Shown: in pieces, positions 489-52,953 of the stretch
Position numbering within the stretch: position 1 is the first letter of the stretch
How the letters are laid out: every line of letters begins with the position of its first letter
Source: a virus
Virus record (IMG/VR): IMGVR_UViG_3300022919_000001
Location: 1 to 52,953 of that record
Length of the DNA stretch: 52,953 nucleotides
Direction: 5' to 3' (one strand)
The notes under the pieces: model-generated
Databases searched by the model: none
Seen by the model: the letters and a program-made list of their open reading frames with translations, nothing else
Told to the model about the DNA's origin: nothing
Translations under genes and position numbers: made by a program

Positions 489-489
489 T

Positions 490-1949: not shown

Positions 1950-2563
1950 AATACTACGCACAAAATTTAGAGGATCAATTCGTTCACCAATACTTCGGCG
2001 ATTATAAAGGAACGCTATTAGAAATAGGTGCAAATTCAGGGGAGTATTTAAGCAACTCATTAGCCCTTATACAAGCAGGGTGGAATGCACATCTAATCGA
2101 ACCCGGGCGCACTTTCTCCGACCTTGTTAAGCTCCATTATACTAATCCTAAAGTACATTTATACAATTATGCTATTGGCGAAACAGAAAGCGTAACTACG
2201 TTTTACGAATCAGGGGCGCACGTTATGGGCGGTAACGATAGTGGTTTAGTAAGCAGCTTAGACTTTGATGAAACCCTACGTTGGCGCAATGCAGGTGTTT
2301 CCTTTACAGAAGCTACGGTACAGGTTAAACCGTTTGCTGATTTTTATAAAGAAGCGGGTGAGCCTGTATTGGATTTTATTAGCATTGATGCAGAGGGGCA
2401 CGATTGGGATATTTTACAGCAGATAGATTTGGGCAAGGTGGGGTGTAAGTGTTTATGTATTGAGTGGAATGGGGATACCAGCCTATACAATAAGTTTCGT
2501 GATTACTGCAAAGGGTATAAATTAGCGCATGTTAACAGGGAGAACCTAATTTTTACGATATGA
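1922..2563 (+). CDS. FkbM-family methyltransferase
   Basis: LLEIGANSGEYLSNS matches the SAM-binding motif typical of the FkbM family. The alternative coupled start is ATG 1946. Confidence 0.75.
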   Translation: MDKIKRQHMKYYAQNLEDQFVHQYFGDYKGTLLEIGANSGEYLSNSLALIQAGWNAHLIEPGRTFSDLVKLHYTNPKVHLYNYAIGETESVTTFYESGAHVMGGNDSGLVSSLDFDETLRWRNAGVSFTEATVQVKPFADFYKEAGEPVLDFISIDAEGHDWDILQQIDLGKVGCKCLCIEWNGDTSLYNKFRDYCKGYKLAHVNRENLIFTI

Positions 2564-2709
2564 AGTTGTGGCAATACTTATTCAACCATAAAAAAAGTGT
2601 TGAACAAATGCAACGTGAGCAAAATAGGCTAAACGCTGAAATAAGGGCTATGTCATTTCAATCTGTTAAATTTAAAAAGTGTTGTGAATTTAAAATAGGA
2701 GCCAATTGA
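2560..2709 (+). CDS. Small hypothetical protein (49 aa)
   Basis: Hand-called. ATGA overlap with the upstream stop and TTGA overlap with the downstream start. Contains two copies of the AAAAAGTGTTG motif. Confidence 0.3.
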   Translation: MKLWQYLFNHKKSVEQMQREQNRLNAEIRAMSFQSVKFKKCCEFKIGAN

Positions 2710-3254
2710 TACATTACATATCCCCCTACTCCACCTCAAAGAACATCGGCAAAGCCATTAACGATAATATTCGCCAACTTAACCCAAATGATGAAGATTG
2801 GCTAGTTTTAATCGACCATGACGTTCTATTTTTGCTCCCCGACACAAAAGCACGCCTCGAACGCATCCTATCAACAACAAATTACGACATTTTAGGCTGC
2901 GTAACAAACCGCTTAGCCATGCCGTACCAATGCGTACAGGGAATGTTCGACGAAACTGATATTCGCAAACACATTGAAGTAGCCCAAATCCTAGAATCAG
3001 ACGAAGTACAACCCTACATGCACATTTTAGCAGCATTTTGCCTATGCTTTCAGGTCAAAACGTGGAGAAAATTAGGTGGATTTGCCGAAAATAGCATACA
3101 ATTTGATACTACTTTCTCGCTAATGGCTGAAAAGAGTGGGTTAAAGAAGGGATTAATGACGGGAGTTTACCTATTTCACGCATACAGGATGTGGTCTGAC
3201 AACCCTAAACAGGACGTGGCGCATTTGCTTCCTGATATACCGCAGCAAGAGTAG
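2706..3254 (+). CDS. GT-A fold glycosyltransferase-like protein
   Basis: WLVLIDHDVLFL (DxD-like) and the overall GT2-like layout. The TTG start is coupled to the upstream ORF. Confidence 0.6.
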   Translation: MIHYISPYSTSKNIGKAINDNIRQLNPNDEDWLVLIDHDVLFLLPDTKARLERILSTTNYDILGCVTNRLAMPYQCVQGMFDETDIRKHIEVAQILESDEVQPYMHILAAFCLCFQVKTWRKLGGFAENSIQFDTTFSLMAEKSGLKKGLMTGVYLFHAYRMWSDNPKQDVAHLLPDIPQQE

Positions 3255-4569
3255 TTTTACCAGTTTGCACGTAATGCTCATTCATATACTGCTCTTTTTT
3301 CTCACCGTATTTAAGCACAGCCCTCATTTCATTTGGTGTTAAAACTCCTTCAGGTATAGATTTAAGGTAATCTGCAACATCTTTCATGTTTACCGCCATT
3401 TCAGGTAGCTGCGTATAGTCCCACTCTAAAGCATCTACGCCGTAACCCTCTGCCAACATGATTGTAAACGCCTCGCCTATCGCATCGCATATAGGTGCAA
3501 TAGCATCATAAACTAATTTAAGGGTTTCAGTGCCAACATTGTTATCTGTGCTTGCCTTTTGGTTGTGATAGCTTAGTGGCACATGGTATGCACGGTAAAC
3601 ATCTTCTTCACTTACGCCGATAACCTCTAATAATTTCAAATCACCAATTGGCAATCCTATTTGCTGCCATGCTAAAGATATTGAAGAGGGAAAAACACGG
3701 CTTAACTCGTCGTTTGACTTGCGAGCTTCAACCATTTTATCCTTTAGCTGCGTCTTTTGTTCAGGCGTTAACTGATCCTCTTTATCCCTCGGAGATAGCA
3801 CACCAAATACACCACCATTCTTAGCTTGCTTGGTAGTTTGCGTCTTACCCTCTTTAATTGCCCGTAAACTTTCAGCATAAGCCCTTAATGGCGCAACACC
3901 GTACAGATATTGCATTGTCCTGTCAACTGGGGCAAAGTTTCCTGTCTTAATATGCTGTATTTCTTCTTTCTCAAACCTTTTCAGGTCATAGCTTTGCAGA
4001 ATGTAGCCACGTATTGGGTTTAAAAAATCCTCCACATCAGCAGCAATCTCCATATTAGGAAAGCAGAACAACTCTTTTACTTTCCCTTTGCCAACTCTAA
4101 TCGGGTGAACGTAGGTATTACCCTGGTATAAGTAGCTTAGTATTGTAGTCCACATTAATTGCGTACCTGTTTGGTATGGATTAGCTTTGCCGTTAGTAAG
4201 CAATGCTTTCAAATCTGAAATATCCACCTCCTCAATAGCCAGCATTTTCATTACGTATGCTTGAACTGGATCTGTTTTTGCCAATTCTTTAGCCTTTTGC
4301 AGTTTAGCTTTATCTTTTATCTTATATCCAACAATGGGGCAGTTAAGTACTTTTTTGGTTAACAAGTCGGTTACTTCGTACGTTGCGCCAATTGTTCTGA
4401 ACGTATTGTAATAGTCTATTGCATCGGGGTTAATAGTAGGTAAGGCGTTATTCAGCCCTATATTAATCATTTGCAAAGCATTGGCATAGCTAACTGCTGC
4501 CTTGCTTGCTATTGCCTCATTAACTTTTTTGTTAATCTGTGAGCCAAATATTAAATCTACTATTCCCAT
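3205..4569 (-). CDS. Portal protein (HK97-family-like)
   Basis: 454 aa, downstream of the terminase genes on the same strand. The C-terminal ..LTPNEMRAVL.. is typical of portals. Confidence 0.8.
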   Translation of the reverse strand: MGIVDLIFGSQINKKVNEAIASKAAVSYANALQMINIGLNNALPTINPDAIDYYNTFRTIGATYEVTDLLTKKVLNCPIVGYKIKDKAKLQKAKELAKTDPVQAYVMKMLAIEEVDISDLKALLTNGKANPYQTGTQLMWTTILSYLYQGNTYVHPIRVGKGKVKELFCFPNMEIAADVEDFLNPIRGYILQSYDLKRFEKEEIQHIKTGNFAPVDRTMQYLYGVAPLRAYAESLRAIKEGKTQTTKQAKNGGVFGVLSPRDKEDQLTPEQKTQLKDKMVEARKSNDELSRVFPSSISLAWQQIGLPIGDLKLLEVIGVSEEDVYRAYHVPLSYHNQKASTDNNVGTETLKLVYDAIAPICDAIGEAFTIMLAEGYGVDALEWDYTQLPEMAVNMKDVADYLKSIPEGVLTPNEMRAVLKYGEKKEQYMNEHYVQTGKTTLAAVYQEANAPRPV

Positions 4570-4675: not shown

Positions 4676-4779
4676 CCTATAATGGTGGACTCGAACCACC
4701 AAACCAAAGATCATATTTAACGACGACTTTATGGCGCTTCCGTCAATCTACTGCTGGTTACCTGTTTCGCCAATTATAT
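4676..4779 (-). tRNA. tRNA-like gene B (non-canonical, about 103 nt)
   Basis: T arm GGTGG-TTCGAGT-CCACC. All-AT acceptor ATATAAT/ATTATAG with a 1:72 mismatch. TGGCGA follows the acceptor. No 5-7-5 anticodon arm was found by eye. Confidence 0.35.
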
Positions 4780-4794
4780 TTTATACTACTTTAG

Positions 4795-4892
4795 TGCAAC
4801 GGGTAGGATTCGAACCTACAACACGGAGATACCTCGAAATATCTTTATCCGCACCAGCTACCTGTTACGTCTACCAATTGCGCCACCGTTGC
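4795..4892 (-). tRNA. tRNA-like gene A (Leu-type D arm, 97 nt, no canonical anticodon arm)
   Basis: Acceptor GCAACGG/CCGTTGC, D arm TGGCGCAATTGGTAGACGT, T arm GTAGG-TTCGAAT-CCTAC. The 47-nt central part lacks a 5-7-5 arm. Confidence 0.5.
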
Positions 4893-4966
4893 TTTTTAAA
4901 AAAGGATAAATCAGCCTTGCGCTTCATTATCCCCATACCTAAACGTTAAATGAAGATTTTGTTAGT

Positions 4967-5263
4967 TTAGTCGTCAAAAGTTTGTCTATTGCTATCATAG
5001 TGAGGAATTAATTCAATAGCCTTTAACACATCGGTTATATTATAGGCCATTAAACTACCATCAAAGAAGTCAACTATCAACCCATCGGGTTTAGTTATAT
5101 CTTCCCAACTTGGAAAACAATGGTCGTTATCATCAATAAATACAGAAACATCCCATCCGCCTTCTCTACCTGTAGAATAATAACTTATCGGTTCAAACTC
5201 AATAAATGTAGGCTTATAGCCTTTAGCGATTAACGCTTTCTCTATCTTTTGTTTATTTTTCAT
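4967..5263 (-). CDS. Hypothetical protein
   Basis: ORF track; last gene of a coupled chain of small minus-strand genes. Confidence 0.55.
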   Translation of the reverse strand: MKNKQKIEKALIAKGYKPTFIEFEPISYYSTGREGGWDVSVFIDDNDHCFPSWEDITKPDGLIVDFFDGSLMAYNITDVLKAIELIPHYDSNRQTFDD

Positions 5264-5441
5264 CTTTAAAAATTATTAATAAACTATCATAAATACTTCT
5301 ACATGTTTCAGTACTTGGGTAGCACAATGTTAGATTATATCCGTCTTTTTTTGTATAAATTTTAATATGCTTTCCTTTGCCAAAGGCGTCACTATCTATA
5401 TCAGCGAATAAATTATCTCCTAATTCTATTTCTCTAATCAC
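5253..5441 (-). CDS. Hypothetical protein
   Basis: ORF track; GTG start overlaps the upstream stop (GTGA). Confidence 0.5.
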   Translation of the reverse strand: MIREIELGDNLFADIDSDAFGKGKHIKIYTKKDGYNLTLCYPSTETCRSIYDSLLIIFKDEK

Positions 5442-10753: not shown

Positions 10754-12301
10754 CTATTTTAAAGTTATATCAGTATAATAAATTTTACCTTTTTCTTTTT
10801 TCAACATAGCAGATTGTACGTTATACCATTTGTCAGAATAGCCCATGCAGGTGCCGAAATCACGTAAAAAATTATCCTTTGTGTGATGGTCTTTCTCTAA
10901 TTCCAATTTCCTATTTGATTTAGCCACCCTGATAGCAAATTGTAACTTTTGTTTTATTTTGGCGTATACAGACAATTCAGCAGGTGACAAAGTAGATAAT
11001 CTCCTGCCAACAAGTTCATCATACTTTTTGGTAATATCAATTAATACCCCTTGCTTTAACTCCGCTTCGTCTAAAGGCTGTTCATGTTGGCAGTATTCGC
11101 AAACCCTCGCCATTAATGATATAATGCTGCCGCAATTAAAACACTCCTTAATAGTATACGTGCCGAGCGCATCGGATTCTTTTTTCTTATCATCTTGCGC
11201 TTTCCACAACTCGCTCCAATTCCTGTCAAAGTAGTACAAGCCATGCCTGCGCCAGTTGTCGCCGTAATCATAACTTTTAAATTTCATAGGCATAGGATGC
11301 GGCTTTTTTCGGTTTGCCCTGAACATGCTTTGCATATAAAGTATGAAGCTACCAAACGCCCTGTACAACATTAATAAATCTACTTCTGGAAAGTCAAAGC
11401 CAGTAGTATATGAAGATACGGAAACAAGTATATCACATCCACTTTTTAAATCCTTGAATTTATAAACTTCTTGCTGTTCAGTTGTGCCTATTTCTTTTAA
11501 TAATTCCGTTTTGCTATGCCCTATAGCGCAATTAAAACCAGCTTGCATCAACTTATTATAGGTATCATGCGCATTCTTTATAGATGCACAAAAAACCATA
11601 CACTTAGTAAATTTACCCTGCTCATTGCGCAAATCTTCAATAAGACCATCATATAAACCAGACTGCGAAAACCATTCATTTTGTGAAGTTTCGGTATACT
11701 CACCACTTGCATTTTTAGTAAGGTGGTTTTCCATTTCCTTTTTACCACGTGCGATATGTTGATTAGTACAAATCCAATCGTTTTGAATAAACCAATCTAT
11801 TTGCTCACTCGGTATGCAGTCCTTATAATAAACAGGTAGATGTTTTGCGTATTTATAATGCGGTGTTGCTGTGAAGCCTGCCGTTAAGCGGTTATGTAAA
11901 TAGTCTAGTATTTTATTAAATATACCGCTGTGGCATTCATCAACCAACGTAATAACTTTTTTGGGTAGGTTATTAAATTGATCTAATAAATATATTCTGC
12001 TAATAAGCGTTTGCGCCATTGCAACATAAACCTTGCCGCATTCAACTTGAAGGTTATCAGGGGTATTTGGGTTAATTCCGATTGCTTTAGCCTCCTTTAT
12101 ATTTTGCACGTAAATATTTATGCGGTCTGTTAAAATTAAAACAGGGCTACCCTTTGCGGCGGCATTCCACGCAATAGTAACAAACTGTTTGGTCTTACCA
12201 GTCCCGCCCGGTGCCTGTACTATTATATGCTCTTTATCACGCATAGCAATAGCGGCTAATTTATTGTGGTTTATTTGATAGTCACGTAATTGAAAACTCA
12301 T
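10754..12301 (-). CDS. DEAD/DEAH-box (SF2) helicase with C-terminal zinc ribbon
   Basis: Motif I QAPGGTGKT, motif II DECH, and CFNCG..CEYC near the C-terminus. Confidence 0.8.
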   Translation of the reverse strand: MSFQLRDYQINHNKLAAIAMRDKEHIIVQAPGGTGKTKQFVTIAWNAAAKGSPVLILTDRINIYVQNIKEAKAIGINPNTPDNLQVECGKVYVAMAQTLISRIYLLDQFNNLPKKVITLVDECHSGIFNKILDYLHNRLTAGFTATPHYKYAKHLPVYYKDCIPSEQIDWFIQNDWICTNQHIARGKKEMENHLTKNASGEYTETSQNEWFSQSGLYDGLIEDLRNEQGKFTKCMVFCASIKNAHDTYNKLMQAGFNCAIGHSKTELLKEIGTTEQQEVYKFKDLKSGCDILVSVSSYTTGFDFPEVDLLMLYRAFGSFILYMQSMFRANRKKPHPMPMKFKSYDYGDNWRRHGLYYFDRNWSELWKAQDDKKKESDALGTYTIKECFNCGSIISLMARVCEYCQHEQPLDEAELKQGVLIDITKKYDELVGRRLSTLSPAELSVYAKIKQKLQFAIRVAKSNRKLELEKDHHTKDNFLRDFGTCMGYSDKWYNVQSAMLKKEKGKIYYTDITLK

Positions 12302-13263
12302 ATCAAATTATCTAAAATGTAATCACATAAATCATAGCCTTTCGGATTATTGCCCGGTATACAATCAACCATCCAGTCGGCAGTAATTAATTGCCGTAAT
12401 TGTGTGCATTTATCTAACCATTGCTGTTCAGCACCGCAATCAGGAATAAGCGAGATGGTGCGCCCTTTCAATACGTGGCATCGTTGCGCTGAAAGGTTCG
12501 TTAATGATCCGCTTGCAAGCCAAATAAAATCAGGGTAAATGACAGATGCAACAATTGCCGTCTTTTCAGATTCTACTATTTTAATTGCAGCATCGGGACG
12601 TTTCGTAAGCAGATGTTCACCAAACAAACATTGCGATAAAACATAGTCTTTCATTCGTGCGGCTTGGTGTACCCATGTTATTAAAGGTTTTGGCTCCTTA
12701 ATTCGCTTGCCAGTTTCTGGGTTGTAAACCATTATTTTACCGCCCCTGATTCTACCGTCAATATCGAATTGCCAAAATATATTTGCTCCATGCCAGTGTT
12801 TAGACGTACCTAATCGGTAATTTTGAATTAAGCCCAAAGCAATTCCAACGTCAAATATTTTACGCAGCCATGTAAAAAAGTGGTTAGGCTGTCCCGTATT
12901 AAATGTGCGGTCAAATAATGCGTAGTCGATGTATGAGGTTGGCAAATCAATCGCAGCTACAAACTTCCAGTTATTATCTTCGGGTGGCATGTTGCAGAAG
13001 TTAACAAGCCATAGTAAGGCTTCTGTATAACCAAATCCCTGCACCGCCATAACGAAATCAATAACATCTCCGCTTTTGCCAGATGAGAAGCATTTGAATA
13101 TGTTTTTTGTGGGGTGTACAGTAAACGATGGTGTACGCTCGTTGCTAAATGGTGATGCTCCCTTATATCCACTACCGTCACGCTTTAGTTGTACAAAGTG
13201 GCCTATAACCTCGACGATGTTGGCTTTTTCTTTTACGTACTTTATTTGTTCTAACTTGGTCAT
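12298..13263 (-). CDS. Primase-like protein (degenerate CHC2 zinc-finger region plus Toprim-like domain)
   Basis: ASPFSNERTPSFTV..FKCFSSGKSGD aligns to CPFHxEKTPSF..CFGCGxxGD with 3 of 4 zinc ligands lost. ESEKTA and LIPDCGA are Toprim-like. Confidence 0.65.
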   Translation of the reverse strand: MTKLEQIKYVKEKANIVEVIGHFVQLKRDGSGYKGASPFSNERTPSFTVHPTKNIFKCFSSGKSGDVIDFVMAVQGFGYTEALLWLVNFCNMPPEDNNWKFVAAIDLPTSYIDYALFDRTFNTGQPNHFFTWLRKIFDVGIALGLIQNYRLGTSKHWHGANIFWQFDIDGRIRGGKIMVYNPETGKRIKEPKPLITWVHQAARMKDYVLSQCLFGEHLLTKRPDAAIKIVESEKTAIVASVIYPDFIWLASGSLTNLSAQRCHVLKGRTISLIPDCGAEQQWLDKCTQLRQLITADWMVDCIPGNNPKGYDLCDYILDNLI

Positions 13264-13391: not shown

Positions 13392-13745
13392 CTAATTTTC
13401 TTTCAAAATTACCACTCCATGCCCTTTTCTTTTTAACCCATTATCGTATAATACAGCTAATTTATGATGTATTGCTTGTTCCGATTTGCCTATCTTTTTA
13501 CCAACTTCCCTATAAGACATGCGCATGTAATTTCTCCGCAAATATCTAACTTCTGCTTGCGTCCAGTAAACATTTTTACCGTAAATAAATGACTTGGCAG
13601 CCTCGCATTCTATATCATTGGCTAATTTTTCAGCACCGCCATAGTTATTTATTAGGCTATTAAAGATAGCAAGCAACTCCCTGCCGCTTTCGCTCCATTC
13701 GTGTTGGTTCATTAGAAAAGGTTGGTTAAAGTGTTTCGGGTTCAT
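13392..13745 (-). CDS. Myb/SANT-like HTH protein
   Basis: WTQAEVRYLRRNYMRMSYREVGKKIGKSEQAIHHKL. The start is uncertain: ATG 13745 or 13712. Confidence 0.55.
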   Translation of the reverse strand: MNPKHFNQPFLMNQHEWSESGRELLAIFNSLINNYGGAEKLANDIECEAAKSFIYGKNVYWTQAEVRYLRRNYMRMSYREVGKKIGKSEQAIHHKLAVLYDNGLKRKGHGVVILKEN

Positions 13746-14397
13746 CTTCCAATATTTCAGGCTCCCAAGCCATACTAAATTCAGCATCTTTAAAAGCCTC
13801 TGCCAAACCTGTTATTTGGGTTAGTCTCAAAACTTCGTCGGCATCCATACCTAAATGTTTAGATATTTTAGCGTCCGACCAATTGCGGCGTTTGAGATCA
13901 ATAACAATATCACTCATTCCATCTATTGAGTGCTTGCCTCTTGCTCTATTGTGCTGAACTGTAGCAGCCATACGGTCTGAAATATCTTCCTGATCTGAAC
14001 GGATTGTAACTACAGGTAAATAACCTTGTATACGCTGCTTAATATCTTCATCATTTTTGCCGCACAAATGACGGTGAAACCCATCAATAACTTCACGCCC
14101 GTTATCAGCTTTCATTGTAACGATTGGCTGAGTGTAACCGCTTGATTGAATTGATAATTTAAGCAACTCCATTTCTGGTTTTGCCACACTATTTGGGTTG
14201 TAGCTATTAGCATATACATTTTCATTTTCAACCCATAGCACACAGTCTACAGGCTCATTTTTAAAAGGCGAAACATCGTGCAATAACAACCTGCAAGCGT
14301 TTAGCAAAGCAACCTTTTCGCCCAATTCACAATTATTAATCTTTTCGGATATTTCACCCATTATTTTTAGCAGGTGTTCGGTTTCGTGACTATTCAT
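13726..14397 (-). CDS. ParB/Srx-like nuclease-domain protein (IbrB-like)
   Basis: The IDGFHRH motif of the ParB N-terminal domain. 8-nt overlap with the upstream PP-loop gene. Confidence 0.7.
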   Translation of the reverse strand: MNSHETEHLLKIMGEISEKINNCELGEKVALLNACRLLLHDVSPFKNEPVDCVLWVENENVYANSYNPNSVAKPEMELLKLSIQSSGYTQPIVTMKADNGREVIDGFHRHLCGKNDEDIKQRIQGYLPVVTIRSDQEDISDRMAATVQHNRARGKHSIDGMSDIVIDLKRRNWSDAKISKHLGMDADEVLRLTQITGLAEAFKDAEFSMAWEPEILEDEPETL

Positions 14398-15601
14398 ATT
14401 GATATTCTTTAAGTTTTTTACGTTTTTCCATTAATTTTAAATACTTCGCATATGCCTCTGTTTTGTGCTGCGTAAATCCCAATCCCTTGCACCAATAATC
14501 ATTCCTTAGAAGGGATTTACATACACGTCGCCAAGAAGGCGCCAGCCTTTCAGCTTCCATTTTATAATCAGCTTCATCTGGTATACCATCAGGATAGCCG
14601 CGCTCGCACCACCATTTATAAAACACACTGATTTTGTTTTGAAATTGAGTTTTAGTTTTATCTGGCATAGATGCCAATAGTAACTGTGCATATGACTTCC
14701 AAGTATGATGAGCGGGTTTGGTTATTTTATTATATCCGTTAATACTGCCCGTTTCCTGAATATACAACGCCCCTGAATTAGCACCGTTTACCCTTGCTAC
14801 AACTTTAGCCCATGTTTCTGGTTCAATCAAATGGAATAGCCATAATCCCCTGCGCTGATCGTCACCGTACGGTTGGCAAATACGCATTTGAGATAATGTT
14901 AAACCAGCTTTGTGCATATAGTCATAAAGTCGGTTATGTGGCATATCAGGGCGTGTTGAGTGCCAATGCCAAATGTCTTGAACCTTCCAATCGTAAATAG
15001 GGTAAATATTGTACAAATCCGGCAAAACCTGCGTAGTCCAAATTTGGTCATTATAACGAACTTTTGTTTTGCTGGCAATAGTACGCCATCTGTTTAAACT
15101 TTCGTCGGTACGGATACCGACGAAACAAGCGCAGGGCTTGCCTTGTGCGTACCACCTGCCAAATTCAGGTACAAATTCCTCGAACTCCATATCCTGAATG
15201 TAAAATGGGAATTCTGTTTTACATACATTTTTTGGCTTCTCTCTAATCCAGTCTTTTTTACGGGATTCTTCCCAACATACCCAATGAGGCTCATAAACAG
15301 ATACCGCGTTACGTAAGTGTAACGGTACACAAATCCAATACGGTTCAATGTGATCTTTGTATAATTCAAAGCATTTTTGCATATGGTCAATGGTTAGTTT
15401 ATATTGCCCCTCCAAATCAACCAGCATAACCGCAACTTTACGACCGCGTTTAATAGCTTCATCCATTACAAGGTGAAGCATAATTGTACTATCCTTACCG
15501 CCACTAAATGAAATATAAATTTTCTCAAAGTTGTCAAACGTATATGAGATACGTTGCTTTGCGCCCTCAAGTACGTTATAAGGTAAAATCTTCTTTGACA
15601 T
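14390..15601 (-). CDS. PAPS-reductase-family PP-loop ATP pyrophosphatase with long C-terminal extension (IbrA-like)
   Basis: ISFSGGKDSTIMLHLV PP-loop motif. 403 aa, i.e. about 200 aa beyond the catalytic domain. Adjacent to the ParB-like gene. Confidence 0.75.
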   Translation of the reverse strand: MSKKILPYNVLEGAKQRISYTFDNFEKIYISFSGGKDSTIMLHLVMDEAIKRGRKVAVMLVDLEGQYKLTIDHMQKCFELYKDHIEPYWICVPLHLRNAVSVYEPHWVCWEESRKKDWIREKPKNVCKTEFPFYIQDMEFEEFVPEFGRWYAQGKPCACFVGIRTDESLNRWRTIASKTKVRYNDQIWTTQVLPDLYNIYPIYDWKVQDIWHWHSTRPDMPHNRLYDYMHKAGLTLSQMRICQPYGDDQRRGLWLFHLIEPETWAKVVARVNGANSGALYIQETGSINGYNKITKPAHHTWKSYAQLLLASMPDKTKTQFQNKISVFYKWWCERGYPDGIPDEADYKMEAERLAPSWRRVCKSLLRNDYWCKGLGFTQHKTEAYAKYLKLMEKRKKLKEYQYE

Positions 15602-19372: not shown

Positions 19373-20485
19373 CTACTTCACAGCCCCGACCAATGTCGGC
19401 AACTCCATAGGCTCACTGGCTCGTAATAAGCCTGAATTTCTTATATTTATGGCTGCGTTAACGTCACGGTCAATAGTTAAGCCGCAATCGCAATTATACA
19501 CACGCTCAATTAATGGCATATCTTTTATGTTGCCGCATCCTGAACAAGTTTTAGATGTTGGCTCAAACCTGCCTACTGCAATTAACTTTCGTCCCTTCCA
19601 ATCAGCTTTATATTTCAACATGGTAGCAAACTTACTCCAAGATGCATCTGAAATTGATAAAGCTAATTTTCTATTTTTAACCATATTTTTAACAGCTAAA
19701 TCTTCTATACAAATAGTACCGTATTGATTGGTTATCTCATTTGATACGTTATGCAAAAAGTGGTTGCGCTGATTAGTTATGCGTTCATGTAGTATTGATA
19801 CTCTTAAATTTGCTTTTTTACGGTTGGCCGATCCTTTTTTCTTACGGCTTGCTCTGCGCTGTAATACCGCCAGCCTGTCTAATGATTTTCGTAATAGATT
19901 AGGCGATTCGTATTCTTTACCATCCGATAGCACCGCAAATGTTTTTATCCCTAAGTCTATCCCTACAGTACCGCTATTATGCGGAAATGGGATATTTTCT
20001 GTTTGTACTAAAATAGAAGCGTAATATTTATTAGTTGGCGTTTTTGATATAGTTGCAGATTTTACCACGCCATTAAAAGCCCGATGTTGAATTACTTTTA
20101 TGCCCTCTCTGAACTTGCCTATAAAAAGAAAACCATTTTTAATAATTATACTCTCCTTAACAAAAAATGAATTTTTGCCTGATTTTTTCTTAAGGGCTGG
20201 AAATCCTGAACCCTTAAAAAATTTACTATACGCAACGTCCATGTTAAGTATCGCCTTATCCATAGAATCCCTCGTAACTTCATTTAGCCAAGGCAAATCT
20301 TTCTTTAAGTCGGTAAGTTGCTTTTGCAAGTCGTATGCAGATAGACTATGCTTACTGCCTCTATACGCTGCTATTTTAGTTTCCAAAGCCAAATTATAAA
20401 CAAAGCGAACACACCCGAAATGCTTTTCGAGCAACACTTTTTGAGTGCCTGTAGGATATATTCGATATTTATAATATTTATACAT
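19373..20485 (-). mobile_element. tnpB: TnpB (IS200/IS605-family OrfB, RNA-guided endonuclease) without tnpA
   Basis: MYKYYKYRIYPTGTQKVLLEKHFGCVRFVYN. RuvC triad motifs GIDLG, CIEDL and DRDVNAAINI. Zinc ribbon CSGCG..CDCG. Confidence 0.85.
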
Positions 20486-43157: not shown

Positions 43158-43622
43158 TTAGGTGGTTTTTGGCGGGAATGTAGCGGTTAATGCACCTGTA
43201 CCCTGAAATGTAGCTGACGTAGTATTTGCGCCATCTGTAGGTGCTGTAATGCTAAAATTGGTAAGTATAGCCGCACCCTCGTAAATCATATCATTGTCGG
43301 CAAATTGCTGACCTACTTTTGTACGAAATAGCACACTTGGTATATTTACATCGCCGTCAACAAATAGTTTACCTAAGTTAACACCGTTGTTGCCAGTTGC
43401 AAAGCTATCTTTTAGCAATGACGGTGAAACATCTATGCTCCACTCTCTGCTATCAGCAGTGAAGTTTTTAAACGGAACATCATCCCCCTCTGATTCCAAC
43501 TCTTTACAAAGCGGATCCTCCGATGTGTTTACAACCATGTTTAAGGTGGCCTCGGCTTGGCATTGTAGCCATTGGTCGCCAATTTGAACGCCTATTATCT
43601 TACCGGGAATTTGATTTGCCAT
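43158..43622 (-). CDS. Major tail (tube) protein, paralogue A
   Basis: Position upstream of the chaperones. Shares GK(I/L)IGV..G, W(S/G)..V and ITAP(T/S)DG..(F/L)QG(T/S)G motifs with 43961..44437. Confidence 0.65.
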   Translation of the reverse strand: MANQIPGKIIGVQIGDQWLQCQAEATLNMVVNTSEDPLCKELESEGDDVPFKNFTADSREWSIDVSPSLLKDSFATGNNGVNLGKLFVDGDVNIPSVLFRTKVGQQFADNDMIYEGAAILTNFSITAPTDGANTTSATFQGTGALTATFPPKTT

Positions 43623-43960: not shown

Positions 43961-44437
43961 TCAGAAACCCTCATCCACTAAAGTATCCCACGGTGTCTCT
44001 GGCGGCATCGCATCTATCAAAAGGCTGTAATCTTGAATAGTATGCTGTAACGGCCCTGAACCCTGCAATTGTATATTCCAACTTGCACCACCATCAGACG
44101 GGGCTGTAATATCCCCGCTTGTAAATAATGCTGTACCTGAAAATATTAACTCAATAGTTGAACTTGGACGGGTGGAGAAAAAAACGCTTAACGGTATCTC
44201 ATCAAAGTAATTACTCAACAACACGGTTTTAATATCCGCACCAACAGCCTCTAAAAGTAATCCGCCGTTAACAGACAGCCCCCAACTACGCAACCCATTT
44301 ATAAACTCTGCCCATCTGCCACTATCAACGGCGGCGGTCGGTAAATTCTCCTGACTAAAATTTATTGTAGATGATATTTCGCAGCTAATAAAAGCACCGC
44401 CTACCATAACCCCTATTAATCTACCTGCTACTGCCAT
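43961..44437 (-). CDS. Tail tube-like protein, paralogue B
   Basis: See 43158..43622 for the motifs shared along the length. Confidence 0.55.
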   Translation of the reverse strand: MAVAGRLIGVMVGGAFISCEISSTINFSQENLPTAAVDSGRWAEFINGLRSWGLSVNGGLLLEAVGADIKTVLLSNYFDEIPLSVFFSTRPSSTIELIFSGTALFTSGDITAPSDGGASWNIQLQGSGPLQHTIQDYSLLIDAMPPETPWDTLVDEGF

Positions 44438-44940: not shown

Positions 44941-45354
44941 CTATTTATTCAACTTATTAATCTCTTCTTCAACAAAAAGTAAAACTTTATCCCTATTCTT
45001 AAATATCGCTGGAAAGAAAAACGGGGCCGCAGGAATCCGACCGCTACCGTCAACATAAAACTTTATAGCCTCCTCTTTGACTTCGGGAGGCATAGACGCT
45101 AAGTAAGCCGCTGCAAAATCACCCGTACCAAATTCATTATAAGCAGATAGGTCGTCACCTCCAATAACAGTTGTGGTAGTTTCCGATTGTGTAACATATA
45201 TCTTTGAAGCTAAGTTACCCTTCGCTTTACTCTTAGCATCGGCAGCAATCATATCCGCAGCACGTTTCTCGCCTTTTTTCTTAGCCTTATTTACATCGGC
45301 TTGCAGTTTACGCAGCCTTGCCAATTCCCTATCAAGTCCCGAAATAGCGGTCAT
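44941..45354 (-). CDS. HK97 gp10-like head-tail protein
   Basis: Size, position, and the N-terminal ..LDRELARLRKLQADV..AADMIAADAKSKAKGNL pattern. Confidence 0.55.
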   Translation of the reverse strand: MTAISGLDRELARLRKLQADVNKAKKKGEKRAADMIAADAKSKAKGNLASKIYVTQSETTTTVIGGDDLSAYNEFGTGDFAAAYLASMPPEVKEEAIKFYVDGSGRIPAAPFFFPAIFKNRDKVLLFVEEEINKLNK

Positions 45355-45725
45355 GTTGTAATATCAATATCCTGTTTAACGCATAATAAACGAATGTAAC
45401 GCACTGGAACATCAACGGGAACAATGCCTTTAATAAAATACGTTGCACCATTACATAACACTACCATATCCTTTTGAGGCGTGAAATTGTCACGTTGCCT
45501 TATTATATACCAACAATCCTGATTAAGTACGCTTGCACCTGCCTCTACTGCTATTTGGCTACGATCTGAAATCTTTTCCTGAATAGCCATTGTGGTTAAG
45601 ATTTGTTGCAGACTTGCGGTAGTACCGCCAAATCCATCGGGTGCGCTTACCTGATTAAAGAACGTTACTTTAAATCGGAAGCGTCCGGGGTCGTATGAGT
45701 GCTTATTTTCGTAGGGGCGTTTCAT
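45351..45725 (-). CDS. Head-tail adaptor / head closure protein
   Basis: RFRFKVTFFNQVSAPDGFGGT.. is typical of the head-tail joining family. Confidence 0.55.
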   Translation of the reverse strand: MKRPYENKHSYDPGRFRFKVTFFNQVSAPDGFGGTTASLQQILTTMAIQEKISDRSQIAVEAGASVLNQDCWYIIRQRDNFTPQKDMVVLCNGATYFIKGIVPVDVPVRYIRLLCVKQDIDITT

Positions 45726-47076: not shown

Positions 47077-47760
47077 TTATTGCTCTAAGTATTTAAAAGT
47101 TGTATTGTTTCTAAAAGCACCATTTAGTTTTGGGATAAGTGTATCTTTCAATATACCATTAGATTCAGCTGCCTGCCTTGCTGTATCGTATATTATTCCA
47201 GTAGCCGTATCAATTACTTTTTTACCTATTTTTAAGCCCCTAATTCGGTGCATTTCAGACCAATTAGGGTTTGCCATTCTACTTTTTATATTATTTAAAG
47301 CATGCTCTTTAGTGAATTTTACGCCCTTTTTAGTAGCACTTACTTTTCTTCCTATTTCTGGGTTTCTTTTTTTACCTCTTAATGGTGCAATCCTCTTTTC
47401 TATTAATTCAGGTGAATGCTTTTTACCTAGATGCTTTTGCCTATTTAGTTCTTTAGACGCTTCGCTATGTTTACCAAAAGAACCACCGCTTCTGCAATTC
47501 ATGTGATTATCATCTAACCACGTATTGTAATAATCAATCCAATAACACTCCCTTGCATTCAAGTCGCAAATTTCACAATATTCGATTACCTCAAATATGT
47601 GCTTCTCTACTCCGTATTTTTTAAAACTTCTTTCCAAAATACGTTGCCCTTTTGCACCGCTGTTTCTGTATTGTCTAAACCTGCCTTCAATATTAATACT
47701 TTGCCCAATGTATAGATTGCCATTCGGATTTGTTATTTTGTATATACCAGATATGCTCAT
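47077..47760 (-). mobile_element. GIY-YIG homing endonuclease (free-standing)
   Basis: SGIYKITNPNGNLYIGQSINIEGRFRQYR GIY-YIG core. The basic repeat-rich C-terminal half looks like a DNA-binding region. Confidence 0.8.
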
Positions 47761-47830: not shown

Positions 47831-49141
47831 TTAAGTTGTAATGGTAAGTAACAACTTTTTGAATGCCTCTGGGTAATTGATACTCAAAGCTATTCTGCCC
47901 TCAAGTCTTACCGTGATTACATTTTTCTCCACATTATCCTTGTTTTGCTCAAAGTAGCCCATTGTCATGGCTCTACGTTGCCAAATAGCGGCACCTCTCG
48001 CAAAGTCACCTACTAAGCCCTCAGCATCGCTAAATACATTTGACCAGTAGATTGCGATACCAGCGATACGCATAGTACCGTTAGCATCAAATACGATTGG
48101 ATAGGTATACTCATCGGTATTACCTTTGTTAATCCATATCTCTTGCCATGCAACAGCAGAAATAACAGCAGCGTTTGCTCTGCGTTTAAGTTTACGCACT
48201 TGGGTAACACCTGCAACCACTTTGTCAATTATGTTAGATGCTGCAGTTACGCTACCTTGTGGGAATGATTGATTACCTGCCTGATACCATAATCCTAACA
48301 GGTTAGTGCCTGTACCGTCCCCTTTGAAGATTTGGTAATCTTCTGCATCAAGATACGCTTGTGGTAATTCGTAAGCTAACCATGCGCGGAAACCAACAAC
48401 GTCATCTAACAACTCATCCTGTACGTCAAGTAAACCTGCAATTTTACGAACAGGAGCTTCGGCGGTGTCACCAGTGTAGCCTAAAGTTGGTTTTTGTGCG
48501 CCAGCCGCTACAGTGGCAAAGCCTGCGGTTTCACCTGTATAAGTAAACTGTACGTATTTAACCAAATCCGAAATGGTTGGGTAAACAGGTATGATGTTAC
48601 GAGCGTGAAAGTCATCGTGACCTGGACCAACAATCGGCGTAAATTGCGGTGCAACACCCCCAGATGGAACGCCCAACGCTTTAATTGTTGCGTTAAAGTC
48701 CTCATCTTTGTCATCACCAATAGTTACGTTAAACTTAGCACGTTGACCTGAAAAGAAGTCCTTAATCATTTGCTCACCATCAGGAGTAGAGAATTTCTCA
48801 ATGATGTGGTCGCTAAAGCCTTTCATACGGGTGTTAATTTCACCCATTTTAGAACGCTTCATTGCGGCTTCAAGTTCCTCCATTTTAGTGGCGTACTCTT
48901 TAGCCTGCTTTTCAGTAGCCTCCTTAATGGCTTCTTTTTGCTCGTCATTTAAGTTAGCAATTAAGTCTGCCTGCTCTTTTTTCAGGTCGGCTTTCATGCC
49001 TTCAATAGCTTTTTCGGCAGCATCTTTTGCCGCTTGTTTGTTCTGCTCAATTTCGTAAGCTGCTTTTTGATCCAAATACTTTTCCTTTTGGTAATCGGTC
49101 AATGCCTCAAACTCCGCAGGGGTTTTTAATTTAAAGTCCAT
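47831..49141 (-). CDS. Major capsid protein, HK97 fold, with N-terminal delta (scaffold-like) domain
   Basis: 436 aa. The first 110 aa or so are a K/E/A coiled coil. ..FKGDGTGTNLLGLW.. motif. Follows the protease-like gene. Confidence 0.85.
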   Translation of the reverse strand: MDFKLKTPAEFEALTDYQKEKYLDQKAAYEIEQNKQAAKDAAEKAIEGMKADLKKEQADLIANLNDEQKEAIKEATEKQAKEYATKMEELEAAMKRSKMGEINTRMKGFSDHIIEKFSTPDGEQMIKDFFSGQRAKFNVTIGDDKDEDFNATIKALGVPSGGVAPQFTPIVGPGHDDFHARNIIPVYPTISDLVKYVQFTYTGETAGFATVAAGAQKPTLGYTGDTAEAPVRKIAGLLDVQDELLDDVVGFRAWLAYELPQAYLDAEDYQIFKGDGTGTNLLGLWYQAGNQSFPQGSVTAASNIIDKVVAGVTQVRKLKRRANAAVISAVAWQEIWINKGNTDEYTYPIVFDANGTMRIAGIAIYWSNVFSDAEGLVGDFARGAAIWQRRAMTMGYFEQNKDNVEKNVITVRLEGRIALSINYPEAFKKLLLTITT

Positions 49142-49148
49142 GTTGTTT

Positions 49149-49988
49149 TTAATTTAAAAGTTGTGAAATACTTAATTTACTTACCGTACTGCGTTCCTGC
49201 GGGTTCGGCTTTTCTGTTTTATTTTCGGGAGTGTCTTTCGACGGCTCATTATCTTTAATATTGCCCGTAACGGGGTTGCTGCCAAATACTACAAGGCTAC
49301 TTTCTCTAACATTTTTAGCTTCCTGAATGATAAAGAAGTATGGTATATACTCAAACTCATCCTTATTAGCTATTTTACCTATGTAGTTATCGTAATTCTT
49401 TTTTAGTGTTACATCTTCGGGGTCGTTGCTATCCATTGCAAATAGGATTGTAACGTACTGCATCCTTACGCTGGCCTCAATTGCATCTCCACTTTCCAAC
49501 CATGCTTTTGCCTTTTCGTGTATCACCTTATCTTTAGCAACCTTATAAACCAATACCTGCGTATCGCCTGCGTATGGTTGCCCTAATAAAGCAAATGGCA
49601 TATCTACAATTAACATTTCTACATGCTCTTTACGAACGATTGTATTATCTATTGTCAATTGGTGGTCTGCTACTAAGTAGTTTTGACCTTGTTGCTCCTT
49701 AACTGATTTATTCCATATACCATCAACATGTAAATCCTCATGGCTGTCTAATATCCAAGTGGTGTTTACAGCGATGTAATAATATGCCGGATCAATGTTT
49801 AAGGCCTTAACATTATCACTCTCTTTAAGAACACGGCAAGTAACAGATGAACCCTTAAGATAAGACTTCTGTATATCGGCCTTTTTGAAAGCGATTAAAT
49901 CATTGTATGACTTGCGTAAATCAGCAAACAAATCCTCCTTAGTGGCGAATTGTTTATCTGCAAAATACCTTGATTTAATTACAGTCAT
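49149..49988 (-). CDS. Prohead protease-like protein (putative)
   Basis: Position immediately upstream of the capsid gene; 279 aa. No catalytic motif confidently recognised. Confidence 0.5.
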   Translation of the reverse strand: MTVIKSRYFADKQFATKEDLFADLRKSYNDLIAFKKADIQKSYLKGSSVTCRVLKESDNVKALNIDPAYYYIAVNTTWILDSHEDLHVDGIWNKSVKEQQGQNYLVADHQLTIDNTIVRKEHVEMLIVDMPFALLGQPYAGDTQVLVYKVAKDKVIHEKAKAWLESGDAIEASVRMQYVTILFAMDSNDPEDVTLKKNYDNYIGKIANKDEFEYIPYFFIIQEAKNVRESSLVVFGSNPVTGNIKDNEPSKDTPENKTEKPNPQERSTVSKLSISQLLN

Positions 49989-50178: not shown

Positions 50179-50394
50179 ATGCTTATAATTGCCTTTAATA
50201 TGACACTACAGGAAGTTATTATTGATTTACGTAGCCGTAAGAAGGTTTACTTAGATGCAGGCTTAAAACAGGCTTATTTTAGCCAAATGTTAACTAAGAT
50301 TGAAAACGGGGTATCAAAGCCTGATACTACCCGAAGATTTTTAGGTTTGTTTGGTTACGAAGTAGAAAGGGAGATGTTATGGCAGAAGAAATAA
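50179..50394 (+). CDS. Small HTH-like protein at the start of the plus-strand island
   Basis: ORF track; first ATG at 50200. ..LKQAYFSQMLTKIENGVSKPD.. looks like a Cro/CI-type HTH. Confidence 0.45.
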   Translation: MLIIAFNMTLQEVIIDLRSRKKVYLDAGLKQAYFSQMLTKIENGVSKPDTTRRFLGLFGYEVEREMLWQKK

Positions 50395-50930
50395 TATGGA
50401 AAGATATTAGGGGCTATAACGGTGTTTACTCAATATCAAATACTGGTATTGTTAGAAGAAACGCTGTCCCTGTTAATAGAGTTTCTAGGTATGGTAACAT
50501 ATATCAATCTACTTTTAAAGAGGTTCTTAATAAGTATACTCTAAATAGAGATGGCTATTATTATGTAGGTTTGTGTATTAATGGCAAACCAAAGCAGCAC
50601 AAGGTACATAGATTAGTTGCTGAACATTTTTGTGAAAAGCAAGAGGGGAAAAACCATGTTGATCATATAGACGGTAACAAACTAAATAATTATAGTTATA
50701 ACTTAAGATGGTGTACGCACGCCGAAAATATCTCTTTTGCATGGGATAATGGTATTTACAATAATGTCGGATCTAATCACGGCATGTCTAAATTAGATGA
50801 AATATCTGTTTGTGAAATAAAAAAACTGATACAAAGTGGCGAACGTAACTATATAATTGCTAAAAAATTCGGTGTAAGTCAACCGACTATTTGTGATATA
50901 AGAAAGGGTAGAGCATGGAACCACGTATAG
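50379..50930 (+). mobile_element. HNH homing endonuclease (NUMOD4-like N-terminus, HNH_3-like core, C-terminal HTH)
   Basis: WKDIRGYNGVYSISNTGIV, HRLVAEHF..VDHIDGNKLNNYSYNLRWCTHAEN, and IIAKKFGVSQPTICDI. Confidence 0.8.
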
Positions 50931-51544
50931 CCGTTTGCATAACAACCACCCCAAACCGTAAGCAATTATTTGAGCAATCATTTAAGCATCTAAGAGAAAA
51001 TACCCCGAATGACGTTTCTTATAAAATATACTTAGATGAAAAATATGAAGGTATAGCTAAGGCAAAAAACAAGTGCCTTGCTATGTGCGATGGTTTTGAT
51101 TTCGTGTTCCTTTTAGATGACGATATTTTTGCCCTTGATAAGTCATGGACTGACGAGTATATAAATTCAGGTCTTGAACACGCTATGTATATTTTTGACA
51201 GGAGATTGTTAATCAAGTCAGAGCAATACTTTAGTTATGATTTACCCCGAGGATGCATGCTTTTCTTAACCCGAAAAGCAATTGATACGGCGGGGGGCAT
51301 GGATGAAGATTTCAAAGTTTGGGGGTATGAGCATGCCGAATATTCTCGTCGGATTTTTAATATGGGCTTAACACCTGCGCCTTTTATTGATATACCAAAT
51401 GTTATAGATTTGTTTTACTCATACGATAAGTGGCAGGCTTGCAAGTCAAGTGTTAGCGATAGTCAGCGAATGCAATCAATTCCTGCCAATTACCACCTCT
51501 ATCAACAAAAATATTATAGTAAAGAATTTAAACCGTTTAGATGA
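50915..51544 (+). CDS. Glycosyltransferase family 2-like
   Basis: GIAKAKNKCLAMCDGFDFVFLLDDDIF (DxD) and GGMDEDFKVWGYEHAEYSRRIFNMG. Confidence 0.75.
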   Translation: MEPRIAVCITTTPNRKQLFEQSFKHLRENTPNDVSYKIYLDEKYEGIAKAKNKCLAMCDGFDFVFLLDDDIFALDKSWTDEYINSGLEHAMYIFDRRLLIKSEQYFSYDLPRGCMLFLTRKAIDTAGGMDEDFKVWGYEHAEYSRRIFNMGLTPAPFIDIPNVIDLFYSYDKWQACKSSVSDSQRMQSIPANYHLYQQKYYSKEFKPFR

Positions 51545-51699
51545 AAACAATATCAGTTACAAATAATATAGCCAACTACAGCACGGTTGGCGCTAAGATA
51601 GATGGCAAGATAGATGCAGTTCAACCTTTATTTCGGGATAAAAACTACACTAGATTCGTAAGATATATTATTATTCACTCTTTTATTTCAGCGAATTAA
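51541..51699 (+). CDS. Small hypothetical protein (52 aa)
   Basis: Hand-called; ATGA overlap upstream and TAATG overlap downstream. Confidence 0.35.
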   Translation: MKTISVTNNIANYSTVGAKIDGKIDAVQPLFRDKNYTRFVRYIIIHSFISAN

Positions 51700-52367
51700 T
51701 GAAAATCAGTATAATACATCCGAGCCGAGGCCGTGCAGAAATGGCTTATAAAACATTTTGTAACTGGCGCGAAAATGCATTTTTTCTTGGTCATGAATAC
51801 ATCCTTTCATTAGATACCGATGATAATGTTGATTCGTATTGGAAGTTATTTATAGATTATGATTTAGCTATAATGACAAACCATAATAAATCAGCTATTG
51901 AAGCCATTAATAAAGCAGTCCAAACAGCAAGCGGGGATTTAATAATAGTTATTTCAGACGATTTCGACTGTTTGCCATATTGGGACAGCCAGTTGTTAGA
52001 GGCATTAGCCGGCCGTGAAGATTTCTTAGTTAAAACCCAAGACGGTATACAAAAGACGCTTATAACATTGCCTATAATGGATAGGGTGTATTACGAGCGG
52101 TTTGGGTATGTGTACCACCCTGACTATTTACACATGCACTGCGATGAAGAAATGACTATTGTAGGACACATGTTGGGACGTGTAATTGATTTGCCTTTAG
52201 TATTCCCGCATAATCACTATACGGTTGGCGGCATGCAAATGGATGCTATTAACACTAAGAATAACGCAACGTGGGCGCATGGTGCAGCTACATTGGAACG
52301 AAGGGCTAAAGATAATTTCGGAATTGAAAATCCTTTGGTTAGGAGGGAGGATATTGTATGGCGGTAG
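51699..52367 (+). CDS. GT-A fold glycosyltransferase-like protein
   Basis: MKISIIHPSRGR.., LSLDTDDNV and IVISDDFDCLPYW (DxD-like). Confidence 0.55.
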   Translation: MKISIIHPSRGRAEMAYKTFCNWRENAFFLGHEYILSLDTDDNVDSYWKLFIDYDLAIMTNHNKSAIEAINKAVQTASGDLIIVISDDFDCLPYWDSQLLEALAGREDFLVKTQDGIQKTLITLPIMDRVYYERFGYVYHPDYLHMHCDEEMTIVGHMLGRVIDLPLVFPHNHYTVGGMQMDAINTKNNATWAHGAATLERRAKDNFGIENPLVRREDIVWR

Positions 52368-52492
52368 TTTTAATTGTATCACTTATATCAAATCTCATTC
52401 TTTGTGTTAAGTATTTTATTGTAAAAGAGCGAAACGATAACCAGCGTGTTATAATTTCAGACTTAACAAAACATATTAATAACAGCAAATGA
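52358..52492 (+). CDS. Small membrane peptide (44 aa)
   Basis: Hand-called: MAVVLIVSLISNLILCV... ATGA overlap with the next gene. Confidence 0.3.
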   Translation: MAVVLIVSLISNLILCVKYFIVKERNDNQRVIISDLTKHINNSK

Positions 52493-52953
52493 GCGATATA
52501 ACCCTTTCAATCCTTATAGCCAATATGCCGAGCCGATGGGTTAAGTTTGGGCACATGCAAGCCTTTATTTGCGAAAACGCAGAAGATGCTGGGTTATTAG
52601 ATTATATCGAAATTATCGGCGATGCTAGTATGGATTACAACATCGGCACCAAACGCAATAAACTACTCCAAAAAGCTAAAGGCGAATACATAGTATTCAT
52701 TGACGACGACGACCATATTTCACCAGATTATGTAAGTAAGATTTTTAAAGCCTGCCAAAGTGGCGCAGATTGCATCGGCATAAGCGGCATAATAACAACC
52801 AACGGCCATGATAAAAGGCAATGGCATATAAGCAAGGAGTACGGGCGTTGGTATACTGGATCAGATGGTACTTATTATAGAACACCTAACCACATATCAC
52901 CTGTTAAACGTGAATTAGCATTGCAGGCTGGTTTCCCTGAAATACCGTTTGGG
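52489..52953 (+). CDS. Glycosyltransferase family 2-like, N-terminal part (continues at 128..229 across the junction)
   Basis: LSILIANMPSR.., IGTKRNKLLQKAKGEYIVFIDDDDHIS (DxD). The frame is open at the window end and in frame with 2..229. Confidence 0.8.
   Translation, partial: MSDITLSILIANMPSRWVKFGHMQAFICENAEDAGLLDYIEIIGDASMDYNIGTKRNKLLQKAKGEYIVFIDDDDHISPDYVSKIFKACQSGADCIGISGIITTNGHDKRQWHISKEYGRWYTGSDGTYYRTPNHISPVKRELALQAGFPEIPFG
52827..52953. repeat. Terminal direct repeat identical to 1..127
   Basis: See the feature at 1..127. Confidence 0.95.

Follow-up and report, generated by a model that had tools for sequence, protein, structure and literature searches.

The window analysed here, the complete 52,953-nucleotide sequence of IMG/VR virus record IMGVR_UViG_3300022919_000001, carries between its portal and major capsid genes a cassette of glycosyltransferase (GT) genes, which is the subject of this study. 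The contig is circular, positions 1..127 being identical to 52827..52953 through an assembly overlap, and the true genome measures 52,826 bp. The cassette spans 5,902 bp of the plus strand (50179..52953, then 128..3254) and holds twelve open reading frames (ORFs, g1 to g12 in Table 1), which encode an HNH endonuclease, six glycosyltransferase domains of the GT-A fold and one FkbM methyltransferase. The genes on both of its sides (the portal gene on one; a 279-aa gene and the capsid gene on the other) lie on the minus strand. A first-pass annotation of the same DNA had already described a plus-strand block of about 6 kb at this place, with an HNH endonuclease, GT-A/GT2-like proteins and an FkbM methyltransferase, and Pfam and PHROGs profiles together with fold models bear this description out. 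The same annotation had seen coupled junctions almost throughout, and most genes do overlap or abut, the exception being a 121-nt gap between 52367 and 52489. It had also read the first ORF as helix-turn-helix-like and the 279-aa gene next to the capsid gene as a protease, and neither label found support. The 71-aa g1 has no profile match and stands only as a conserved leader gene, and the 279-aa protein, conserved in all relatives, has no match in Pfam, PHROGs or the Protein Data Bank (PDB) and no detectable similarity to the phi17:1 and Che8 proteases or to Corndog gp39, its protease/scaffold label thus being positional.

Profile assignments were made with Pfam and PHROGs, folds were taken from AlphaFold models matched to structures, and reference enzymes were compared by BLASTP. 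With the profile of the g5 family, a match to dolichol-phosphate mannose synthase was obtained (5mlz, E 5.6e-5), and the 188-aa reading frame of g6 appears once one copy of the 127-bp overlap is removed. The two-domain g8 is a fusion in the window, since L005 and L054 (L-numbers denote fetched loci, either relatives or references) encode its C-terminal module (g8C) on its own, and in L054 each half has its own gene. Profile searches of g8C and g12 against the PDB gave no matches, and the folds of both come from the models instead: that of g8C (pLDDT 93.4) matches the retaining GT-A enzymes XXYLT1, LARGE1, BoGT6a, glycogenin and LgtC as well as A64R (2p72), which glycosylates the capsid of PBCV-1, and that of g12 (pLDDT 92) has GT-A transferases as its sole fold matches. 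No significant similarity of g12 to the g5 and g8C families was found with hhalign. Through g8C, modelling now gives a GT-A fold to an unnamed family that counts at least 333 proteins. DxD motifs, which had been reported for every GT-like ORF, are indeed present in g3, g5, g6, the N-terminal half of g8 (g8N) and g12, but g8C has an invariant LDxS where the other GTs have DxD. The start of the methyltransferase gene g10 is probably the ATG at 1946, since homologue alignments begin at residue 9, and this start would give an ATGA overlap with g9. The homing endonuclease g2 is a mobile passenger outside the glycan pathway. None of the cassette proteins has a membrane segment (maximum 19-residue hydropathy 1.25), and profile searches found no flippase or lipid-carrier enzyme among them. 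Homologues of g12 with 40-43% identity also occur in phi92/phAPEC8-like E. coli and Klebsiella myoviruses (NC_023693 phi92 gene 166, NC_047994 and others).

Table 1. Genes of the glycosyltransferase cassette and of its structural neighbours in the window.
Feature	Position	Strand	Assignment and remarks
Assembly overlap	1..127		identical to 52827..52953
g1, 71-aa leader	50179..50394	+	no family match; may be a small regulator
g2, HNH/NUMOD4 homing endonuclease	50379..50930	+	HNH_3 + NUMOD4; phrog_59 E 1.5e-43
g3, 209-aa GT-A glycosyltransferase	50915..51544	+	Glyco_transf_7C 25.4 bits (cut-off 23); phrog_2456 E 8e-41
g4, 52-aa ORF	51541..51699	+	no assignment; not kept in relatives
g5, 222-aa GT2-family glycosyltransferase	51699..52367	+	Glycos_transf_2 26.7 bits (cut-off 23.3)
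g6, 188-aa GT2 glycosyltransferase	52489..52953 then 128..229	+	Glycos_transf_2 37 bits
g7, ~100-aa ORF	183..488	+	no assignment; conserved, 89% identity in L056
g8, 413-aa two-GT-domain fusion	481..1722	+	N-half GT2-like, phrog_8858 E 1e-27
g8C, C-terminal GT module of g8	~1102..1719	+	no Pfam match; GT8/GT6-like retaining GT-A fold (model)
g9, 77-aa ORF	1716..1949	+	no assignment
g10, FkbM methyltransferase	1922..2563	+	Methyltransf_21 (PF05050) 52.6 bits vs 22.7, profile positions 1-159/173
g11, 49-aa ORF	2560..2709	+	no assignment
g12, 182-aa compact GT-A glycosyltransferase	2706..3254	+	phrog_14179 E 1e-41; invariant D37-x-D39
Portal protein, slot boundary	3205..4569	-	Phage_portal 123.8 bits
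279-aa protein, other slot boundary, directly upstream of the capsid gene	49149..49988	-	protease/scaffold by position only
HK97-type major capsid protein, ends ...KKLLLTITT	47831..49141	-	Phage_capsid 88.9 bits; C-terminal Thr is the predicted acceptor
Major tail (tube) protein, ends ...FPPKTT	43158..43622	-	phrog_1407; predicted second acceptor
Paralogous major tail protein	43961..44437	-	phrog_1407
Head closure protein, ends ...DIDITT	45351..45725	-	possible further acceptor, weak evidence

Several of these enzymes are related to those of phages with glycosylated particles. Virions of Che8, Corndog and Myrna bear glycans at the C-termini of their capsid and tail tube proteins (Freeman 2023, Cell Host Microbe 31:1216, as relayed in PMC12619734 and PMC12363180), and the GT25 enzymes Che8 gp110 and Corndog gp38 are called essential in PMC12363180. 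The g3 protein matches 595 phage records, 558 of which are Mycobacterium phages, mostly of cluster F, at ~34% identity over 95% of its length. By BLASTP, it is 35% identical to the N-terminal domain of gp106 of the cluster F phage Ramsey (E 4e-38), while g6 and g8N are 33% (E 9e-26) and 27% (E 6e-20) identical to the N-terminal domain of Che8 gp108, and in relatives of the window Ramsey gp106 has homologues that cover its full length (E 1e-93 to 1e-99). Che8 gp108 (L003 2172..3347) is itself a fusion of a GT2 domain with a TylF/Methyltransf_24 domain, and Corndog gp35 and gp41 of the Cellulophaga phage phi17:1 belong to the same methyltransferase class; the methyltransferase of the cassette is of the FkbM family, unlike the Che8 gp108 C-terminal domain and Corndog gp35. 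The arrangement is likewise shared: the portal gp34 and head protein gp41 of Corndog enclose the methyltransferase gp35 and the GTs gp36-38, so that the same slot is used. As in Che8 and Corndog, soluble phage-encoded GTs come with a methyltransferase, in the window one of another family with a putative sugar substrate, and both capsid and tube proteins end in a hydroxyl residue (..KTGS and ..SDGS in Che8, ..LVGS and ..KGDS in Corndog, ..TITT and ..PKTT in the window).

The host lineage belongs to the Bacteroidota, as one relative lies within the chromosome of Mucilaginibacter xinganensis, at about 2.69 Mb of CP022743.1. Comparable genes are found in phi17:1, phi12:1 and phi18:1 (Helsingorvirus; Holmfeldt 2013; PMC11946311), which are also Bacteroidota siphoviruses and have the closest cultured capsid (30% identity). 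In phi17:1, a Methyltransf_24 protein (gp41) and a two-domain GT (gp42) are encoded between the portal/minor capsid and the protease/capsid genes, the C-terminal domain of gp42 is 35% identical to g12 (BLASTP, E 5e-25), and -GT is the ending of both its capsid and its tail protein (..VSGT and ..TVGT); it differs from the window in having this single two-domain GT, placed on the strand of the structural genes. The phi17:1 gp41 gene (L001 6252..6719) is annotated as a DNA methylase, probably wrongly, judging from its match to Methyltransf_24.

Cargo in the portal-capsid slot is a conserved trait and does not stem from a recent insertion, since within this lineage the cassette found there is always carried by the opposite strand and opens with a g1-like leader in several relatives. 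The first-pass annotation had seen here an island splitting the head module, but a foreign insertion is not what the data show: the cassette has a G+C content of 0.37-0.39, equal to that of the rest of the genome, and an opposite-strand cassette led by a small gene, with or without GTs, is present in each of the 20 relatives in which the slot can be seen. Homologues of g1 lead the cassette in GT-bearing and GT-less relatives alike (L016, L019, L021, L053 and L055, with L021 being GT-less). Three types of GT cargo can be distinguished. Type A, that of the window, combines g3, g5, g6, g8C and the FkbM methyltransferase, in most cases also g12, with g8N and a class I methyltransferase as optional members; Type B consists of a full-length Ramsey gp106-like two-domain GT plus g12; and Type C of a Che8 gp108-like protein of ~437 aa, a g3-like GT and a Methyltransf_24 enzyme. 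Only the g3-type domain is shared by all of the 15 GT-bearing relatives examined at the DNA level. At the distal end of the cassette, g12 and the portal gene are convergent and their 3' ends overlap by 50 bp (3205..3254), which leaves no space for a terminator; the same portal/g12-type overlap is present in L007, L050 and L056.

The content of the slot co-varies with the last residue of two structural proteins. All retrievable loci with a visible portal-capsid region were included in this comparison, and the 17 GT-bearing genomes comprise the window itself, 15 loci for which DNA was read and one contig, P0100, known from its gene table only. A profile search with the capsid alignment gave no match among genome contigs, and among metagenome contigs it returned mostly contigs already known from IMG/VR. 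The capsid C-terminus is Thr or Ser in 114 of 120 homologues of 50-100% identity (the terminal pairs being TT in 84, TS in 14, GS in 8, AS in 3, AT in 2, GT in 2 and IS in 1) and Ala in the other six. Where GTs occupy the slot, the capsid ends in Ser/Thr in 17/17 genomes, and it ends in Ala in all four GT-less loci (L011, L015, L021 and L047; Fisher p = 1.7e-4), the slots of which contain only small unknown ORFs. In a tree made without the C-terminal tail, Ala-ending capsids occupy at least four places among Ser/Thr-ending neighbours. The portals of L015 and L021 are 96% identical and their upstream genes 86%, but their capsids only 55%, and the L015 capsid is 77-78% identical to the capsids of the GT-bearing L019 and L054, the capsid genes across this mosaic being only 53-60% identical to one another. 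One GT-less block has therefore been joined to three capsid lineages, each of which lacks the terminal hydroxyl.

The tail tube protein follows the same pattern, with Ser/Thr at its terminus in 13 of 13 GT-bearing loci and Pro in the single GT-less locus where the tube is visible. For the head closure protein there is a weak trend (Ser/Thr in 8/13 GT-bearing versus 1/4 GT-less loci), and the remaining eight conserved head and tail proteins are at background, so that the co-variation is specific to two of the eleven conserved proteins. In a broad search of the tail protein family, the ...P-x-T-T ending recurs down to ~30% identity and a Ser/Thr end is found in 28 of 51 representatives; the divergent, Pro-ending tail protein P0330 lies on a 1.7-kb contig and is uninformative. 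The identity of the terminal residue also tracks the type of cassette, since loci with a Che8 gp108-like enzyme have Ser (5/5) and those with other types have Thr (11/12; p = 0.001). The window has two paralogous major tail protein genes with a 109-aa ORF between them, and the conserved Thr/Ser terminus is found only in the paralogue adjoining the chaperone genes. A broader -TT tag on five proteins, including the head closure protein, the tail terminator and a 329-aa tail protein, was considered and dropped, as -TT is not kept in relatives; the claim made here concerns the capsid and tail tube only.

The families and folds of the enzymes, their homology to the validated Che8 enzymes, the common slot and the co-variation with two termini lead us to favour, with fair confidence, the view that the cassette encodes a virion O-glycosylation system of the Che8 and Corndog kind, the acceptor being the Thr/Ser at the C-terminus of both the capsid and the major tail protein. 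This role was among the candidates of the first-pass annotation, which had also argued for the multi-step assembly of a glycan and against a single-step glucosylation of DNA, a point likewise supported here. Taken at the level of sequence, the termini suggest that both capsid and tail tube subunits offer a C-terminal Thr/Ser acceptor. In the scheme that follows, the acceptor residue, the enzyme order, the choice of sugars, what the methyltransferase acts on and any advantage for the phage are inferred. During infection, the soluble GT-A enzymes would act in the cytoplasm on nucleotide sugars of the host. Step by step, they would build an O-linked oligosaccharide on the capsid and tail tube proteins, attached to the hydroxyl of the last residue, a Thr or, in some relatives, a Ser. 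The lack of membrane segments in the cassette proteins fits a direct transfer of sugars to protein in the cytoplasm. The g3-type enzyme probably attaches the first sugar to the protein, as its domain is present in every GT-bearing relative with DNA, and the other five GT domains would lengthen the glycan, one sugar of which would be O-methylated by the FkbM enzyme. The product would be a glycan coat over head and tail.

Several observations weigh against this proposal. No orthologue of the GT25 enzymes of the gp110/gp38 type was found in the cassette: Che8 gp110 matches the Glyco_transf_25 profile, no cassette protein gave a BLAST match to it, and in hhalign comparisons the gp110 family reached only E 0.055 with g12 and E 0.089 with g5. 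The GT-less loci have one portal-protease block in common, and truly independent losses are thus few. In L048, whose slot is off the contig, the capsid (1525..2808) ends in ..PPTPTA and a divergent tube candidate (4817..5281) in ..GAQTT, so that the two termini possibly part company there. The cassette and the late structural genes occupy opposite strands, in contrast to Corndog and phi17:1, which does not by itself point to late co-expression, and scans for sigma-70 promoters, terminators and the Bacteroidota -7 motif (TAnnTTTG) gave hits at chance level.

This inverted orientation, together with the leader gene of its own and the variable cargo, gives the cassette the look of a moron, and it could be a module with its own promoter, possibly expressed in lysogens, that remodels the lipopolysaccharide (LPS), capsule or other surface glycans of the host against superinfection or to alter receptor availability. 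The relative in the M. xinganensis chromosome points to a possibly temperate lineage, and a role of this kind has been proposed for the Cellulophaga GT (PMC11946311). Against it, the genes of the window that were scanned include no integrase. The phage-encoded glycosyltransferases of the GtrABC systems (P22, SfV) require membrane proteins, namely the GtrA flippase, the bactoprenol glycosyltransferase GtrB and a polytopic transferase, and the cassette, with no membrane segment, has neither these nor a polymerase or acetyltransferase. Surface remodelling, the other role put forward in the first-pass annotation, would moreover leave unexplained why the presence of the cassette goes along with a given C-terminal residue in capsid and tube, and the homologous enzymes of Che8 are part of a system that glycosylates the virion; we consider it unlikely. 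Phage-encoded GTs also modify DNA, as the T4 alpha- and beta-GT and the TET-associated GTs do, and the cassette might build a glycan on hydroxymethylated bases as a protection against restriction. In line with this, g3 has a sub-threshold match to TAGT (16.7 bits versus a cut-off of 27.5, E 0.007) and a weak one to the beta-glucosyl-HMC alpha-glucosyltransferase PHROG, a GT of one relative bears a weak TAGT mark in a genome that also encodes a C5 DNA methylase, and DNA glycans made by several GTs are known (bioRxiv 10.1101/2023.12.21.572611). Such systems require a pathway to hydroxymethylated bases, and the window encodes no dCMP/dUMP hydroxymethylase, TET/JBP dioxygenase, C5 cytosine methyltransferase or DNA polymerase, which removes the precursor pathway. 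As the best homologues are virion-glycosylation enzymes of mycobacteriophages and a DNA target would not predict co-variation with capsid and tube termini, we regard DNA hypermodification as very improbable.

The GTs could also act on some other target, such as cytoplasmic proteins of the host, small molecules or minor virion proteins, the Thr/Ser termini then being structural and unrelated to them. The acceptor is a predicted one, part of the association may reflect the shared ancestry of the portal-protease block in GT-less genomes, and L048 is a possible break in the pattern, all of which would suit this explanation. It has more difficulty with an association that persists across a mosaic of such divergent capsid genes, is confined to two of eleven conserved proteins, extends to the type of terminal residue and singles out the same two proteins that are the targets in mycobacteriophages, and we judge it improbable as well.

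If the cassette does glycosylate the virion, it represents a variant of the mycobacteriophage system in another phylum, with a different set of enzymes and without GT25. The hosts belong to a soil Bacteroidota lineage here and to the Actinobacteria in Che8 and Corndog; there are six GT domains here versus two to four there, an FkbM methyltransferase in place of TylF/Methyltransf_24, and a terminus in -TT in place of -GS; and the cassette here runs against the direction of the structural genes, behind a small conserved leader ORF. A further difference is that one GT module, g8C, comes from an unnamed family. Glycans have been seen on the virions of Che8 and Corndog; that of the window is a predicted one. 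A looser likeness exists with the chlorovirus PBCV-1, in which cytoplasmic GT-A enzymes and a methyltransferase activity encoded by the virus decorate its own major capsid protein. PBCV-1 (A064R and partners) is, however, a giant virus of eukaryotes with N-linked glycans at internal sites, and the match to it is one of fold, with no homology of sequence claimed. To our knowledge, C-terminal glycosylation of capsid and tail tube proteins has so far been shown only in phages of mycobacteria, and the study reporting virion glycosylation in mycobacteriophages is said to have found little evidence for the trait in the wider phage population. In a limited literature search, we found no report of virion glycosylation in Bacteroidota phages. 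The first-pass annotation had not recognised the arrangement as described for any Bacteroidota siphovirus, which needs qualification, as the GT in the structural module of phi17:1 and phi18:1 has been noted before; its authors, whose remark is the only one in print that we found on a Bacteroidota counterpart, proposed a modification of LPS or DNA and not virion glycosylation (PMC11946311).

A wider hypothesis, which we put forward tentatively and hold to be possible but not the likelier outcome, is that a C-terminal Thr/Ser glyco-tag read by a universal g3-type O-glycosyltransferase is widespread in siphoviruses of soil (Mucilaginibacter-type) and marine (Cellulophaga) Bacteroidota, and that recombination at their slot exchanges cassettes of at least three kinds (types A, B and C). 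The head genes of the window are flanked by two homing-type endonucleases, a GIY-YIG enzyme (47077..47760, minus strand) and the HNH/NUMOD4 enzyme g2, and the differing positions of homing endonuclease genes in relatives fit a mosaic recombination of portal, capsid and cassette. Were this hypothesis true, the particles would have interchangeable glycan serotypes, comparable to those determined by bacterial O-antigen loci. If the main proposal of virion glycosylation is right, the trait would cross phyla, reaching phages of Gram-negative Bacteroidota in soil and sea. As evasion of antibodies cannot be the selective force in such phages, the question of what a glycan coat is good for would then be reopened; in environmental phages it would need a use apart from protection against mammalian antibodies, such as particle stability, the avoidance of adsorption to decoys or the evasion of hosts or predators. 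The association between slot GTs and a terminal Ser/Thr could serve as a rule for detecting such phages in metagenomes. The cultured Cellulophaga phages offer a ready test system, and a short C-terminal tag for cytoplasmic glycosylation could be of use in the glyco-engineering of phages and proteins.

Beyond the head and tail modules, the genome encodes a terminase, a helicase, a primase, an exonuclease, RecT and an endolysin, besides the tail genes. A complete TnpB-type gene (19373..20485, minus strand; HTH_OrfB_IS605, OrfB_IS605 and a Cas12f1-like TNB domain) lies within the replication/recombination module and could represent either a passenger of the IS605 family or a nuclease guided by RNA. 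An overlapping pair of minus-strand genes (13726..15601) encodes a ParB-like protein and a PAPS-reductase/DUF3440 protein, which we take to be an IbrB/IbrA-like pairing. A tRNA gene of 98 nt (4795..4892, minus strand) scores 36 bits against its Rfam model (gathering threshold 29) and is missed by ARAGORN, and the 85 bases beside it (4688..4772) are 81% identical to the crAss-like phage cr60_1; the region around 4688..4892 may be an unusual or intron-bearing tRNA region. In the relative L052, a T4 Rnl1-like RNA ligase gene and a polynucleotide kinase/phosphatase-like gene (11313..13195, minus strand) adjoin the capsid gene and resemble a tRNA-repair module.

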